This document shows positions 54,932 to 60,719 of a DNA stretch of 64,000 bases, one piece after another. The DNA comes from a bacterium (GTDB lineage: Bacteria > UBA8248). The notes beneath the pieces were generated by a model, which saw only the letters and a program-made list of their open reading frames with translations, ran no database searches and was not told the DNA's origin. The stretch's first letter is position 1, and each line of letters begins with the position of its first letter. The position numbers and the translations under genes are program-made. Location: the NCBI GenBank assembly GCA_965213625.1, contig CBDBZU010000004.1, positions 2,272,001 through 2,336,000 of the forward strand. The letters run 5' to 3'.

Positions 54932-54986
54932 GTCCTGAAATATCTGTAATATGGAATTTACTTCATAACTATTGGAAGAAATTGTG

Positions 54987-55832
54987 ATGGCGACAGACGA
55001 ACTGACGATTCATCATGAAGACTTGCGTGGCCGCATTCTCTCAGCGGATTCGATGACCTATTTTGACGAAAGGGTTGGAGAATGGGACGTTCTCATTGGA
55101 GGCTCTTACGCCGCACGCATGACGATGGCGTGGGCAATGCGCCTGGGTGCGAGGGCAATCATTGCCCATGCGGCAGGAGTAGGGAAGGATGATGCAGGGA
55201 TAAGCGGTCTCCGGTTGGCCCAGGAATATCATGTCCCTGCATTGGCATGTGAGACAATGTCCGCAAGACTCGCCGTTGGAGTATCCGTTTATGAAGGCGA
55301 AGTCGGCCATGCGAATCAAGTGGCCCAAAGTCTCGGTGTTGAAATCGGTCAATCCATTGCTGAAGCTTCGAAAATTTTGCTCGATGCCGATGTGGGCCGG
55401 GAAGTGATTGTGGAGGAAAGCCTGGATGATAGAATTTATGAGCTAGAGCATTTGCCTGATGGTAATATACGCGCTTCATGGGGAATTCCCGTCCTGCGTT
55501 CTATCCAGGAACCAAGGCCCCAAGATGTTTTTATCCAAGCCTCGCATTGCGGACTCACTCTCGTACCGCATGTCATGAAGCTTAATTTAAAGGGTGTTAT
55601 TGCCAATGATGCAGGACGGGGGAAAGATGACTCCGGCACCGCATCTTTCCCCTACCTGGCGCGGGAGGGGATTGCGGTGGCGGCGGTCGGAGCCATGAGC
55701 GCGCGCATAGGTGATGTGATGAGCACCTGGCAGGAAGGCGTTATTTCATGCATGAACGAAGTAGCCGAAAAGCGTGGAGTGCGAGGAGGCATGAAGACGC
55801 GAGAGGCTGCTCTCGTCATGCTAAATGGTTAG
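54987..55832 (+). CDS. Hypothetical protein with two homologous domains
   Basis: HAAGVGKDDAGISG...MSARLAVG / NDAGRGKDDSGTAS...MSARIGD internal duplication. Confidence 0.8.
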   Translation: MATDELTIHHEDLRGRILSADSMTYFDERVGEWDVLIGGSYAARMTMAWAMRLGARAIIAHAAGVGKDDAGISGLRLAQEYHVPALACETMSARLAVGVSVYEGEVGHANQVAQSLGVEIGQSIAEASKILLDADVGREVIVEESLDDRIYELEHLPDGNIRASWGIPVLRSIQEPRPQDVFIQASHCGLTLVPHVMKLNLKGVIANDAGRGKDDSGTASFPYLAREGIAVAAVGAMSARIGDVMSTWQEGVISCMNEVAEKRGVRGGMKTREAALVMLNG

Positions 55833-55852
55833 GGTTTTATTCGAAATTGTCC

Positions 55853-55928
55853 TGGTGGAGGTGAGGGGATTCGAACCCCTGACCTCGTGGGTGCGATCCA
55901 CGCGCTCTCCCATCTGAGCTACACCCCC
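55853..55928 (-). tRNA. tRNA-Ala (CGC)
   Basis: Minus strand GGGGGTG/CACCTCC acceptor with G3-U70, anticodon loop ATCGCAC, TTCGAAT T-loop, ACCA end. Confidence 0.96.
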
Positions 55929-55941
55929 ACAAAGGAACTTG

Positions 55942-55970
55942 AAGGTAGGCGAAGGAGCTTCGGGTGTCAA
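55942..55970 (-). promoter_or_regulatory. Sigma70-type promoter for tRNA-Ala
   Basis: Minus strand TTGACA, 17-bp spacer, TACCTT. Confidence 0.75.
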
Positions 55971-55980
55971 GTGAAATAGG

Positions 55981-56375
55981 GAGAGCCGGTGAAGTGCTCC
56001 CCCTAGGAGACTTCACCGGCTCTCGACCTGCCGCAGAGTCCGCCCGTTTCCCCCGCAGCAGGGAATCATATTCGAATTAGTGGGAGCCAAGGACTCAACC
56101 ACCGAGGTGTATTGTCCCCGGCTCCCGATCCTGCTGCAGAGTCCGCCCGTTTCCCCCGCAGCAGGGAATCATATTCGAATTAGTGGGAGCCAAGGACTCA
56201 ACCACCGAGGTGTATTGTCCCCGGCTCCCGATCCTGCTGCAGAGTCCGCCCGTTTCCCCCGCAGCAAGAGAATCTATTAAAAATCCGTTTTGGTGAGAGT
56301 CGGGGGACAACCCTCCGAGGATTCTCCCCCGACTCTCGTCCCGTCGCAGAGTCCGCCCGTTTCCCCCACGACGGG
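55981..56375 (-). ncRNA. Array of four two-hairpin structured RNA units (103-107 bp period), unknown family
   Basis: Invariant 20-mer AGAGTCCGCCCGTTTCCCCC at 56035, 56138, 56241, 56348, each enclosed by an 8-bp stem; compensatory changes; A-C mismatches on plus become G-U on minus. Repeat is certain, RNA function is inferred. Confidence 0.7.
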
Positions 56376-56384
56376 TAAATTAGT

Positions 56385-59300
56385 TCAAGAACATCCACTC
56401 GTCGCGCCACATGTCATACATTTGAGGCACGTGCCGTTTCGCACTAAAGTGAACAAACCACAATCGCTGCATGCTTCACCCTCATACCCTTTTGCCCGCG
56501 CTTCTTCGATACGTGAATCGAGGGTGGAACTTGCTTCTGTTAAGGGTGTCATCGAAGTTTGGGTGGATTCTTTTTCATAATTCAAACTTATACGGTCGCT
56601 GCGCGGTGCGCTCGCATCCGGTCCCGGGAATACGGTTTGAATTTCATCTTTTTCCTCAGTGTCGAATTCCGGGATCTCATCTTGGGGACGCCCAATGGTG
56701 TCACTTCTCAAATCCTCCGACACGACTTGCGCAAGGTCGTGGCGTCCGAGATATGAAACTGCCAGTTCACGGAAGATGTAATCGATGATGGATGTGCTCA
56801 TCTTGATGTGGGGGTTACCGGAGACCATTCCCCCGGGCTCGAAGCGTGTGAAGACGAAGGCATCCACGAATTCGTCCAACGGAACGCCGTGCTGGAGCCC
56901 CAGCGAAATCGCGATGGCGAAACAGTTCATGAGGCTTCTGAAGGCAGCGCCTTCTTTGTGCATATCTATGAAAATTTCGCCGATAGAGCCGTCCTCGTAC
57001 TCACCGGTTCTAAGATACACTTTGTGTCCACCGATAACGGCTTTTTGCGTGTATCCGCCACGGCGGGTAGGTAACTTGCGTCTTCTGGATTGGTAAATGA
57101 TCCGGCGCACAATCTGCTGAGCAACGTGCACGGGAGCACTTTGGGAAGCTGGTTCTTCTTCACCGATATCACTGAAGAGTTCCGCTTCACTTTGCGCGGA
57201 AAGTGGTTGGCTTAGTTTCGAGCCATCGCGGTAAATCGCAATTGCTTTGGTCATTCGCAGCCATGACTCATGGTAGATGTCCAAAATGTCTTGAATTGTT
57301 GATTCCGCAGGCATGTTGATGGTTTTGCTGATGGCGCCTGATATGAAAGGCTGCGCCGCCGCCATCATGCGAACGTGCGCCATCGGGCTGATGAAGCGCT
57401 TGCCTTCTCGCCCGCATTTGCTCGCGCAATCAAAAACGGCTAGATGCTCTTCTTTCAGGTGGGGGGCGCCCTCAAGCGTCATTTTCCCGCAAACATAATC
57501 ATTCGCTTCGCTGATTTGCTCTGGAGTGAAACCAATGGCTTCGAGCAAATTCAGGTTCCAGTCGGCTATTTGCGCTTCATTAAGATTCAATTGTTCACGA
57601 CAGAAGTCTTCACCAAGGGAGTATTTGTTAAATGCGAACTGGATTTCAAACGCCCCTTCAAGTGCGGCTTCCACCTTTTCGAGGGCTTTGCTGGTAAACC
57701 CTTTTGCATGTAGAGATTCTGGATTGATATGAGGCGCATTCGTGAGGGTGCCCCGCCCTCTGCAATAGGCGACGATTTCGCGGATTTCTTCATCGTCATA
57801 GCCCAGGTGCCGCAAGGCAAGAGGAACGGACTGGTTGATGATCTTGAAATAACCGCCTCCGGCCAGTTTTTTGAATTTCACCAATGCAAAATCTGGCTCG
57901 ATTCCCGTTGTGTCGCAATCCATTACCAGGCCAATAGTGCCTGTTGGCGCGATGACAGTGGCTTGCGCATTCCGGTAGCCGTTTCGATAGCCAATGGCCA
58001 ACGCGTCATCCCACGCTTCACGCGCCGCTTGGAGAAGATAATCGGGGCAGATTTCCCCAGCAATTCCTTTAGGCGCCTTCGAGAGCATTTCGTATTCTGT
58101 TTCAGGCACTGAATAAGCTGCGCGGCGATGGTTTCTCAATACCCGCAGCATATGTTCCTGGTTGTCCTGATACCTGACGAAAGCTCCCAGTTCTCCTGCC
58201 ATTTCGGCACTTGTAGCGTACGAGCAGCCCGTCATGATAGACGTGAGAGCGCCGCACCACGCTTCCGCTTCCGGAGAATCGTAAGGGATGCCGAGAACCA
58301 TGAGCGCAGTGCCGAGATTGGCGTATCCAATTCCCAAGGTACGATACTCAAATGAGCGTTTGGCTATTTCGGGGCTGGGGAATTGCGCCATGAGCACCGA
58401 AATTTCAAGGACAACCGTCAGCAGGCGAATCACATGGCGATAGTCTTCTATCTGGAAATGATTCTGTTCTGTATCCAGGAATTTCATGAGATTCATCGAC
58501 GCCAGATTGCATGCGGTGTCATCCAGGAACATGTATTCCGAGCAGGGATTAGAACCATTGATACGTCCATCAGTGGAGCACGTGTGCCAATCGTTGATGG
58601 TCGTGTCGAATTGAAGGCCAGGGTCTGCGCAACACCACGCCGCATATCCAATCTGATCCCAAAGTTCTTTCGAACTGACGGAGTCGGCGATTTCACCATC
58701 GGTGCGTCGAATCAAGTTCCAATCCGTATTTTTTTCGGTGGCATTCATGAAATCATCTGAAATACGTATCGAATTGTTCGAGTTTTGCCCGGACACCGAA
58801 GTGTAGGCCTCGCCTTCCCAATTCGTGTCGAATTCCTCGAACTCGATCTCGGTGATGCCTTGCTGCGCGAGTTGAAGGGTTCGATGAATGTAATTATCCG
58901 GAACACCGGCGAGCCTTGCGGCGCGTATTGCTTTGACGAGCGATGGGTTCTTGTCCGGCTGATGGAGGTTGCCGTTGAGGCCTAGGTTCTTTCCTTCCAG
59001 GCAAGCCGCGAGAATGGCGTTCATGTGCCGGCTGCACATCTTGCTGCCCGATACCAGGGCGGCCACTTTCTGTTCTTCATGCACCTTCCAGTTAATGAAT
59101 TCCTCGATGTCGGGATGATCGATGTTTAACGTGACCATTTTCGCCGCGCGTCGCGTCGTGCCGCCCGACTTGATGGCGCCCGCTGCGCGGTCCCCAATCT
59201 TAAGGAAACTCATCAGGCCGGAACTTCTTCCGCCACCCGAAAGCGACTCCCCTTCCGCCCTCAAGCTCGCGAAATTCGTACCGGTACCTGAGCCGTATTT

Positions 59301-59975
59301 GAAGATGCGCGCCTCGCGCGTCCATAAATCCATGATCCCGCCCTCGTTGACGAGATCATCTTTTACAGATTGGATGAAGCACGCGTGCGGCTGGGGACGT
59401 TCATAGGCGTTGGTGGAGCGGAGGATTTCTCCGGTTTCCGGGTCGCAATAGAAATGGCCCTGAGCGGGACGCGTAATGCCGTAAGCCCAGTGGAGGCCGG
59501 TATTGAACCACTGCGGCGAGTTGGGAGCCGCCATCTGGCTCGCAAGAATGTATAGAAGCTCATCATAGAACGCCTTGGCGTCCTCTTCCGAATGAAAATA
59601 GCCGTGCTTCCAGCCCCAATACGTCCAGCATCCCGCCAGGCGATGGAAAACGTCCCGTGCGTCTCGCTCGCTGCCGTATTTCTCGTCCTCTGGGAGGGAT
59701 TCGAGTTTTTCCGTGTCCGGCTCCGAACATTGCAGCCACTCGGGTACGCCTTCTTCGGGAATTTTTTTCAGATGGGTGGGGACGCCGGCTTTACGAAAAT
59801 ATTTTTGCGCCAGAATGTCGACGGCCACCTGAGACCAGTTCTCCGGCGCCATGATATCCTTCGCTTCGAAGACGACCGAGCCGTCCGGGTTGACGATGCG
59901 AGAGGTGCGCGGCGCGAAACCGACCTCGCCGTACGTGTCATCTCCGGCCCGGGTGAAACGCCTCGTAAACTCCAC
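56385..59975 (-). CDS. nrdJ: Vitamin B12-dependent (class II) ribonucleotide reductase
   Basis: [29 protein letters not shown] thiyl motif, [28 protein letters not shown]-terminal domain with CxxC..CxxC.GCS; no ATP cone. Confidence 0.96.
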
Positions 59976-60012: not shown

Positions 60013-60081
60013 GGGACATATTTAGTATGCCGAAATCAAACCGCAACACTAAATGTAGTATGCTTTGTCCCCGTCTGTCAA
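60013..60081 (-). promoter_or_regulatory. nrdJ promoter with tandem NrdR boxes
   Basis: ACACTAAATGTAGTAT (60046-60061) fits acaCwAtATaTwGtgt; weaker box at 60013-60028; minus-strand TTGACA (60081-60076), 18 bp, TACATT overlapping the strong box. Confidence 0.7.
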
Positions 60082-60116
60082 TACTTTAAAATCGGATATA
60101 CACAAAATATATGAAC

Positions 60117-60160
60117 TTACCCACACCTTATCCCCAAATGTTGTGCTTTCATGTGGATAA
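60117..60160. promoter_or_regulatory. Three DnaA-box-like 9-mers
   Basis: TTACCCACA (60117), TTATCCCCA (60128), TGTGGATAA (60152, perfect reverse TTATCCACA). Confidence 0.6.
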
Positions 60161-60719
60161 GCGGCGCAAGGAGGATAATGAGGGCCGAAACACCGCCCCG
60201 ATCCGCACCTGCAGCCTCGTTATCCGGGGCGGCGGCGCGCCCGAAGGGGTGCGCGGGAGCACCCGAATCACGGTAACGTGGCCGACATTCAGGGGTGTCT
60301 CCATCGCGAAAAATCACCCGCAAACATGCCCCGGATGTGCCCGGAAAAACACAGGAAATTTATCGAATAACCCCGTGAATTTATCTATATTTATCGTATT
60401 TTTCAGAATTGATTGGCTCTGGTTCGCCGTCCCGATTCCGCGCTGATGACTCCACACTCCCGGATATTCTGATTGCGCGAAAAGAGATTCTTCAAACGAG
60501 CCGACCTCCCTGTCGCGCGACCCGCGGTTTCAAGAGCGAAGACAGCGCGTCGAGCAGGGGTATGGTGCACCACCGCAGAATCCGCACTTGCGGGGAAATG
60601 CGCGCTTCCCGGCTGAGGCGGGTCTCATCGGCTCGCTCAACGAAGGGCAGCCTGCGCTCATCCACCGCGCGCATCGACAGTCGGCGAATCACGTCGCAGA
60701 CGGAGTGGCCCATGCCCCC

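Follow-up and report, generated by a model that had tools for sequence, protein, structure and literature searches.

A tandem array of covarying two-hairpin RNA modules in the nrdJ 3′ untranslated region of one Nitrospinota family

A 64,000-nt stretch of a Nitrospinota genome (hereafter the window; positions 2,272,001 to 2,336,000 of contig CBDBZU010000004.1) carries, between the ribonucleotide reductase gene nrdJ and the gene for tRNA-Ala(CGC), a row of repeated hairpin-forming sequences on the minus strand, within the nrdJ 3′ untranslated region (3′ UTR). Are these a repeat of the DNA, the passive tail of a message, or an RNA with a task of its own? Ribonucleotide reductase (RNR) is the gate to DNA synthesis, and the Nitrospinaceae, the ocean's main nitrite oxidisers, are barely tractable, with almost nothing known, to our knowledge, of their RNA biology. 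We are highly confident that the element represents a new structured RNA restricted to a single family of Nitrospinota, situated in the nrdJ 3′ UTR and built from one to four tandem modules of ~90-105 nt.

In the window the array comprises four tandem units (55973-56378) spaced 103, 103 and 107 nt apart (Table 1). Each unit consists of a hairpin termed B, a linker of 2-3 nt, a hairpin termed A and an AU-rich spacer, the spacers being the only long single-stranded stretches of the array. Hairpin B of unit 1 begins at 56375, the tenth base past the nrdJ stop codon, and the last hairpin of the array, A of unit 4, extends to 55981. Both the coordinates and the inverted repeats agree with a first-pass annotation of the sequence, which had placed four minus-strand units with 2-3 nt linkers 10 nt past the stop; the CC-rich apex and the length of 43-45 nt that it gave for hairpin A likewise hold (43, 45, 45 and 44 nt in units 1-4). 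A 20-nt string in hairpin B occurs exactly four times in the window, always on the minus strand, versus 0.01 occurrences expected.

To assess conservation, units were gathered from related genomes, and 83 distinct ones, aligned with MAFFT (alignment A1), yielded a covariance model, R1, of 92 positions and 29 pairs; realignment to R1 returned 109 matches, of which 89 are distinct (alignment A2) and underlie the anatomical counts given here. Minimum-free-energy folds and RNAalifold agree on hairpin B as a 12-bp stem closing a 12-nt loop. The annotation had described it as an 8-bp stem around an invariant 20-nt loop, and while the string is indeed invariant, eight of the 20 bases belong to a conserved inner stem, rich in wobbles, of four added pairs, GGGG/CUCU (G-U, G-C, G-U, G-C). 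The outer stem has eight covarying pairs, one of them read as UA in 51, CG in 34 and UG in four units. The inner stem is conserved in sequence, with G-C in 89/89 at two pairs and G-U in 69/89 and 87/89 at the other two. The loop opens with four variable bases, mostly G-A-A/C-A, and continues with CGGGCGGA, invariant in 89/89; GGA is invariant within the loop at columns 27-29 (89/89). The last base of the linker is C in 77/89. Hairpin A has a lower stem of 12 bp, covarying yet purine-rich on its 5′ side, a middle of variable sequence and length, and an apex that reads CCU-NGG-RGG and in which C, C and U are each present in 85/89 and column 83, the third position of GGA, is A in 30/89 and G in 52/89; we take this apex to fit the YUNR loop pattern. 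On the 3′ side of hairpin A, inner units mostly continue with ACCA (24/56) and the AU-rich spacer. Folded in windows of ~97 nt, single units reach −49 to −70 kcal/mol.

Is this a structure under selection, and on which strand? In A2, which was fitted to the model and hence favours structure, standard pairs fill 97.7% of 2571 pair cells versus 86.6% in shuffles, 23 of the 29 pairs show compensatory changes on both sides (365 cells), and none of 500 shuffles equalled any of five pairing measures. Sliding the 3′ partner by 1-3 columns lowers pairing to 44-55%. In the MAFFT alignment, made without the model, compensatory changes are already present in 20 of 26 RNAalifold pairs. Among the 89 distinct units, G-U cells number 393 and A-C cells 8, and because of this imbalance the array reads as RNA in the nrdJ sense; read from the other strand, pairing drops from 97.7% to 82.7% of cells. 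Folding of the 420-nt array gave −235.4 kcal/mol (z −12.1) in the nrdJ sense versus −177.9 kcal/mol (z −8.6) on the other strand. The compensatory pairs, the G-U excess and the fold thus bear out the covarying RNA structure in the nrdJ sense that the annotation had proposed. As for tertiary contacts, the highest mutual information fell on helix pairs, the remainder tracked unit type, and none involved the invariant B loop.

Table 1 Features of the nrdJ–tRNA-Ala region, in window coordinates.
Feature	Position	Strand	Basis or remark
nrdJ, 1196-aa open reading frame	56385-59975	−	class II (B12-dependent) ribonucleotide reductase by Pfam; C-terminal translation read
Unit 1, whole	56287-56378	−	102.6 bits, covariance model R1
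Unit 1, hairpin B	56340-56375	−	8-bp variable outer stem, 4-bp inner stem GGGG/CUCU, 12-nt loop ending CGGGCGGA
Unit 1, hairpin A (43 nt)	56295-56337	−	apex CCU-CGG-AGG, then ACCAAAA; inverted repeat, folds
Unit 2, whole	56177-56271	−	78.6 bits, model R1
Unit 2, hairpin B	56233-56268	−	exact 20-nt string, folds
Unit 2, hairpin A (45 nt, 'middle type')	56185-56229	−	folds
Unit 3, whole	56074-56168	−	81.1 bits, model R1
Unit 3, hairpin B	56130-56165	−	exact 20-nt string, folds
Unit 3, hairpin A	56082-56126	−	identical to unit 2 hairpin A; folds, exact repeat
Unit 4, whole	55973-56065	−	96.7 bits, model R1
Unit 4, hairpin B	56027-56062	−	exact 20-nt string, folds
Unit 4, hairpin A (44 nt, 'last type')	55981-56024	−	inverted repeat
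U-rich tail CCUAUUUCACUU after unit 4 hairpin A	55969-55980	−	sequence reading
Tract with exact 103-bp period	56033-56266		recent duplication of middle unit
Candidate tRNA promoter TTGACA, 17 nt, TACCTT	55942-55970	−	sequence reading; TTGACA conserved among relatives
tRNA-Ala(CGC)	55853-55928	−	ARAGORN and Rfam tRNA model; usual downstream neighbour of the array

The tandem direct repeats with palindromic cores, together with the recent exact duplication described below, could also be taken as a feature of the DNA: a mobile or dispersed repeat, a protein-binding palindrome or an array of the CRISPR (clustered regularly interspaced short palindromic repeats) type. To this possibility we give next to no weight, since the strand-specific ratio of G-U to A-C points to RNA and since every carrier genome has the element at one locus and nowhere else. 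In the window's own genome (G000; 4.15 Mb, 96.6% complete), model R1 found no copy besides the four units at E values up to 1, except for a 26-bit echo of hairpin A on the opposite strand, and the single extra match in a 20-mer search, with three mismatches, is explained by chance; viral contigs gave no match. Of the hypotheses put forward in the annotation, the structured mobile repeat is therefore discarded, there being no other copy in the genome and all copies lying at one locus per carrier, after nrdJ in 34 genomes. A dispersed repeat, be it of the repetitive extragenic palindrome or bacterial interspersed mosaic element type (REP/BIME) or a miniature inverted-repeat transposable element, was rejected on the same ground, namely one tandem locus in each of 37 carriers. 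A CRISPR array was rejected as well, as its spacers would be unique and unrelated, whereas what separates the B repeats here is conserved hairpins with homologues in other units and other genomes, as the annotation's judgement 'not CRISPR-like' anticipated; no search aimed at cas genes was made.

How widely is the element distributed? Matches to R1 were present in 37 of 51 Nitrospinota genomes, each of which has all its copies, one to four, in tandem at one locus, and all carriers belong to one family, f1 (36 of 41 f1 genomes plus the window's own genome). None of the nine genomes from other Nitrospinota families had a match (f2, 0/1; f3, 0/1; f4, 0/7). Five carriers have one copy, nine have two, 18 have three and five have four, numbers that are lower bounds because contig ends cut some arrays. 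The f1 genomes lacking a match (G017, G018, G024, G027 and G031) are all fragmented into 280-560 contigs, and in the two of these five that were examined, G018 and G027, the nrdJ 3′ end itself was not found. Two candidate loci from the search among relatives, L006 and L032, proved to be chance matches. An exact-pattern scan of one genome per species, covering 185,579 species, returned 49 loci. In 29 of them the B stem forms 7-8 of 8 pairs and hairpin A follows; the titles of these records name Nitrospinota, Nitrospinaceae or Nitrospinae (11), 'Candidatus Tectomicrobia' (2) or a metagenome-assembled 'bacterium' (16). The other 20, single matches mainly in Actinomycetota but also in Acidobacteriota, Gemmatimonadota and Desulfobacterota, form only 1-5 of 8 pairs, lack hairpin A and were set aside as chance or coding matches.

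The array corresponds to no known family. A permissive scan of 55700-56700 against Rfam 15 (4227 models) returned only the tRNA, by way of the transfer-messenger RNA (tmRNA) model of its clan, and two junk mir-7558 matches (E 0.36 and 0.52), while gathering scores over the whole window gave two tRNAs only. The annotation's statement that this is not a recognised motif accordingly stands, and the covariance-model search that it had suggested, now run on the genome and relatives, found no scattered copies in random orientation. Descent from the neighbouring tRNA-Ala found no support, since 48, 437 and 452 of 500 shuffles align to it at least as well as the units do; a tRNA-like fold found none either, as ARAGORN and the Rfam tRNA model match the true tRNA alone. 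In the part of the literature that was accessible, no report of an element of this kind, or of non-coding RNAs from Nitrospina, was found.

The tie to nrdJ is strict. In 94 of 94 fetched unit-bearing loci, representing 34 of the 37 carriers (G032, G063 and G065 lie outside this count), the nrdJ 3′ end is located upstream on the same strand. The gap between gene and array measures 10-31 nt except at seven loci from three genomes (102, 288 and 401 nt). The B loop is invariant while the NrdJ C-terminus diverges to as little as 67% identity, with values of 67-74% across genera. With one locus counted per genome, a tRNA-Ala gene follows the array in 28 of 34; contig ends account for two of the six exceptions, and no other neighbouring gene is conserved among the 34; the tRNA is not taken as part of the element. 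Outside family f1, nrdJ has other 3′ ends. The sister family f4 has nrdJ in 6/6 genomes searched, 40-47% identical over the main C-terminal match and with the same zinc-ribbon ending, and its 3′ flanks are ordinary and unrelated to the array, with no tRNA within the fetched loci. Across other lineages, a total of 86 nrdJ 3′ flanks, 80 of them from metagenomes (49-59% identity) and six from f4, lack the array; the sole model match near them, of 21.8 bits, lies >1 kb downstream. A metagenome scan with the NrdJ C-terminus found only relatives of 49-59% identity, none of them with the motif, and so sharpened the specificity without widening the known diversity.

How did the copies arise, and have they been kept apart? 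An exact repeat of 131 nt at offset 103 (56033-56163 = 56136-56266) substantiates the exact 103-bp duplication of the middle units noted in the annotation. In a maximum-likelihood tree of the 89 units, which rests on few columns and leaves many forks open, units 2 and 3 of the window are sisters with 100/98 support and were hence recently duplicated, so that, as the annotation had it, the array changes by duplication. In the same tree, units from genus g1 cluster by position and not by genome, with a clade of 14 middle rows (99/96 support) and another of 20 last rows (100/98 support). The units are thus positional orthologues across genus g1, and because the clades follow position, the unit types predate the genus, each having been kept since. 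Three genomes (G016, locus L012; G002, L019; G013, L020) have a middle unit without hairpin B, in which hairpin A is kept but decaying; these loci represent a natural 'B deletion', usable to ask what hairpin B contributes. Conversely, at L030:1603-1675 in G029 hairpin B is intact and hairpin A disrupted, with a score of 43 bits versus 75-87 for the neighbouring units.

This history bears on the simplest functional explanation, a passive array of stabilising and terminating hairpins which would keep 3′ exonucleases off the long nrdJ mRNA and act as an insulator for the tRNA gene, with loop conservation as a by-product of folding kinetics or of recent spread by duplication. The great stability of the hairpins, the U-rich tail at the last hairpin A and the position directly past the stop codon would all suit such a role. 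Yet eight invariant loop bases, wobble pairs and a conserved apex are unneeded for it and have nevertheless been kept across genera. The sameness of the loops is not the result of recent homogenisation either, because the unit types have been separate since before the genus radiation. Since, moreover, the sister family f4 keeps nrdJ with ordinary, unrelated 3′ ends, we regard a purely passive array as improbable.

We infer that transcription continues from nrdJ through the array and ends at the last hairpin A, which would thus be the nrdJ terminator, because only this hairpin has a U-rich tail: at least five T within the 12 nt after hairpin A are present in 26 of 33 last units and in 6 of 56 inner units. 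Sponge metatranscriptomes from two studies contain contigs of a relative, 88-95% alike, that cover the array. The nrdJ 3′ end is joined to unit 1 in two of them (X2 record 16, 56332-56750; X1 record 8, 56321-56510). These contigs show that the array is present in RNA libraries and contiguous with nrdJ. They covered neither 55700-55801 nor most of nrdJ upstream of 56770, and their depth was 45-75 over the array versus 34 at the nrdJ end, figures that cannot rank parts of the transcript. RNA runs X5 and X7 yielded the tRNA only, plus one short piece of nrdJ in X7.

What might such an RNA do? We tentatively propose, as a possibility short of an even chance, a multivalent RNA that is co-transcribed with nrdJ and whose invariant G-rich loops bind one trans-acting partner, possibly after processing into small RNAs (sRNAs) of ~90-105 nt. 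The modules would serve as multivalent recognition sites presenting their loops to one invariant partner, RNA or protein, in an amount that follows nrdJ transcription. RNase E/G could plausibly cut within the AU-rich spacers, and cleavage there would release stable RNAs closed by hairpins at both ends, that is, sibling sRNAs or decoys derived from the 3′ UTR, whose loops would titrate a C-rich RNA, base-pair with one, or engage a protein of unspecified family. The outcome would be the coupling of another process to deoxynucleotide demand. Several facts bear on function: an invariant loop implies an invariant partner; the motif, absent from the rest of the genome, does not mark a regulon of many sites; it is always tied to nrdJ; copies kept individually suggest dosage or multivalency to matter; and a fixed linker, a conserved wobble stem and a second conserved loop suggest a rigid module. 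The window's genome encodes RNase E/G (1e-105) and RNase III (3e-35), the gene for the latter, rnc, being located directly upstream of smc.

Several observations weigh against an RNA that acts in trans after processing. A simple consensus scan of 55700-56600 called neither a terminator nor a promoter, the tail CCUAUUUCACUU falling below threshold. The RNA support consists of assembled contigs, which give no strand and no ends and may reflect DNA carry-over, and their breaks coincide with the repeated B hairpin, where an assembler would be expected to put them. Processing at the spacers is pure inference. In the 96.6% complete own genome, Hfq (PF17209) and ProQ (PF04352) had 0 matches each, CsrA (PF02599) had none in a search whose control found it in three named genomes, and no proteins with an RNA recognition motif (RRM) were found; because of these four absences the usual sRNA and sponge machinery is missing. 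Genome-wide, 11-mer complements of the loop occur at about chance level, and 6977 crude translation starts show no excess of loop-complementary sites (16-17 of 40 shuffled seeds did equally well). The searches made identified no partner. Finally, the conserved linker length, inner-stem sequence and second loop are no less compatible with a rigid module that binds a protein or ligand than with an sRNA seed.

This last point leads to a cis-acting 3′-UTR element, in which a dedicated RNA-binding protein would read the B loop, the wobble stem and the A apex and set the half-life or 3′ processing of the nrdJ mRNA, more modules meaning more avidity, with no RNA target in trans. The strict tie to one gene and the absence of any B-like hairpin elsewhere in the genome fit this well, as do the lack of enrichment at translation starts and the 2-3 nt linker, the two G-U pairs, retained in 69/89 and 87/89, and the second conserved loop, which suggest a module read by shape and sequence together. 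However, none of the four RNA-binding families searched offers a candidate protein, no neighbouring gene but the tRNA is conserved, and protein-bound regulatory sites in bacterial 3′ UTRs are rare. On balance, we consider a cis element doubtful, though a serious contender.

For a multivalent RNA working in trans, pairing candidates were searched for with the B loop. Pairing with the genome's tRNAs or tmRNA was rejected, as 42% of shuffled loops do equally well, and so was pairing with the nrdJ mRNA or its 5′ UTR, for which the best duplex (−14.5 kcal/mol) is unremarkable. Eight loop bases are complementary to a universally conserved decoding-site stretch of 16S rRNA, ~0.9 such 8-mer matches to rRNA being expected by chance on our own estimate. 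The longest complements of the loop in the own genome are two 12-mers, the best located in the L11 coding sequence and the other on contig C2. The latter, a small unplaced contig of 2731 nt, carries it near position 139, in apparent coding sequence.

One lead stands out from this search. The start region of smc, second-best for the loop complement, follows a 139-nt rnc-smc spacer (G000:C4:3883630-3883768, L211) with three CCGCCC boxes, the complement of the B-loop core GGGCGG, within 70 nt before smc, and the family as a whole conserves them. One box lies in the loop of a CTACC/GGTAG hairpin and another at the smc ribosome-binding site, where it is kept as CGCC[CT]G in 28 of 30 family members. 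Genome-wide there are 35 such 70-nt windows, and this is one of only two outside long open frames. The mean duplex energy between loop and smc leader is −16.0 versus −11.0 ± 1.9 for shuffled loops, with 9 of 500 shuffles reaching it, and the leader motif is absent in 4/4 genomes of sister family f4. Against this, the choice of the site was made post hoc out of ~7000 start regions, and the leaders are mutually related; only 5-6 bp of complement remain in genera g2 and g5, with the loop unchanged; and the f3 genome, which lacks the array, has the box. That released modules would pair through their GGGCGG core with the rnc-smc boxes thus earns very little credence from us, although it would, if true, couple deoxynucleotide supply to chromosome condensation. 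The search for loop-complementary targets suggested in the annotation has accordingly gone both ways, negative for genome-wide and start-site enrichment and weakly positive, after the fact, for rnc-smc.

Could the modules instead bind a small molecule? In a riboswitch-like arrangement, each B/A pair would bind a deoxynucleotide- or cobalamin-linked metabolite and alter the fate of the mRNA. Invariant unpaired bases on a covarying scaffold, the fixed two-helix geometry and the tandem layout are compatible with this, and RNR genes are known riboswitch targets in other bacteria. But the array lies 3′ of its gene and has no downstream gene to regulate, being followed by a tRNA with its own presumed promoter and a convergent open reading frame (ORF); it contains no multi-helix junction or conserved internal loop, and the middle of hairpin A varies; inspection by eye revealed no convincing alternative pairing with a terminator arm; and up to four copies would be unusual for aptamers. 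Rfam, besides, offers no match to the array. Ligand sensing of this kind we judge quite improbable. A broader variant, in which each B/A module is a 3′-UTR sensor, tandem riboswitch-like or partner-gated, that would read a deoxynucleotide- or cobalamin-linked signal and decide, from the 3′ end, what becomes of the nrdJ message, likewise finds little favour with us; were it true, it would be a regulatory layout not described in bacteria.

Regarding the surroundings of the array, the nrdJ ORF matches Ribonuc_red_lgC (1.2e-123), Ribonuc_red_2_N (9.7e-45) and TSCPD (4.6e-11) in Pfam, and its translation ends in a cysteine-rich zinc-ribbon tail. NrdJ is ~1196 aa long in the window's family versus open frames of 934-992 aa in f4 (loci L118-L130), part of the extra length being a low-complexity linker ahead of the C-terminal zinc ribbon. 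Upstream of nrdJ, on the minus strand at 60030-60170, lies a TTGACA-type promoter region with several AT-rich palindromes, which presumably resemble NrdR operator boxes. No riboswitch matched within the 744 nt that separate nrdJ from the pyruvate carboxylase gene. Downstream, TTGACA-17-TACCTT is probably the tRNA's own promoter, although the consensus scan rejected it, its second hexamer having only 3/6 matches. Convergent with the tRNA is an ORF of 286 aa (54972-55832, plus strand) that consists of two similar halves, has only sub-threshold Pfam matches (DUF1805, IMS) and is kept downstream of the array in genus g1 at 77-96% identity.

Within family f1 the nrdJ array shows conservation on a par with many riboswitches, in an unusual place, a 3′ UTR, and an unusual form, one to four diverged and selected copies. 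The motif is a clean family marker and a ready candidate for Rfam, and identifying the partner of the B loop would bring to light a novel RNA-binding protein, an undescribed sRNA circuit linked to deoxynucleotide demand or a new ligand-binding fold.

Which known systems does the array resemble? Three kinds come nearest in form, namely tandem sibling sRNAs, 3′-UTR-derived sRNAs and CsrB-type sponges, and the array lacks a defining trait of each: promoters for single units, Hfq or ProQ, and CsrA, respectively. The first kind includes the sibling sRNAs LhrC1-4 of Listeria and the NsiR1 array of Nostoc, which likewise consist of tandem two-hairpin units of ~100 nt in variable copy number, with a short conserved motif in more than one loop, including that of the 3′ hairpin; tandem homologous units with a shared conserved loop motif are thus a sibling-sRNA feature present here. 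However, LhrC and NsiR1 units each have their own promoter and terminator, whereas 55700-56600 holds no promoter-like site and 50 of the 56 inner units lack a U-rich tail, which gives the array the look of a single 3′ UTR. The LhrC and NsiR1 motifs are rich in C and U and pair with ribosome-binding sites, while the loops described here are G-rich, and there is no sequence or Rfam relation between those sRNAs and the array. In origin, the modules are reminiscent of the enterobacterial sRNAs CpxQ, SdhX and NarS, which come from an mRNA 3′ end, share its terminator, have their conserved part just upstream of the terminator hairpin and have their level tied to the parent promoter. Those are single-copy and Hfq-dependent, in contrast to one to four copies in a genome without an Hfq or ProQ gene, where processing would have to be assumed. 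The CsrB and RsmZ sponges also present rows of hairpins with the same short G-rich loop motif, and the B loop has an invariant GGA; unlike them, the array faces no CsrA gene, has GGA at the A apex in only about one-third of units and is a 3′ UTR instead of a free-standing sRNA gene. With terminators and REP/BIME arrays it shares GC-rich hairpins right after the stop codon, the last with a U-rich tail, but REP/BIME elements occur in hundreds of dispersed copies, compared with a single locus here, and intrinsic terminators keep no invariant loops, as this element does. We class the array as a new RNA family among the conserved modular non-coding RNAs of bacteria, and as an unusual one, diverged, multi-copy and housed in the 3′ UTR of a ribonucleotide reductase.

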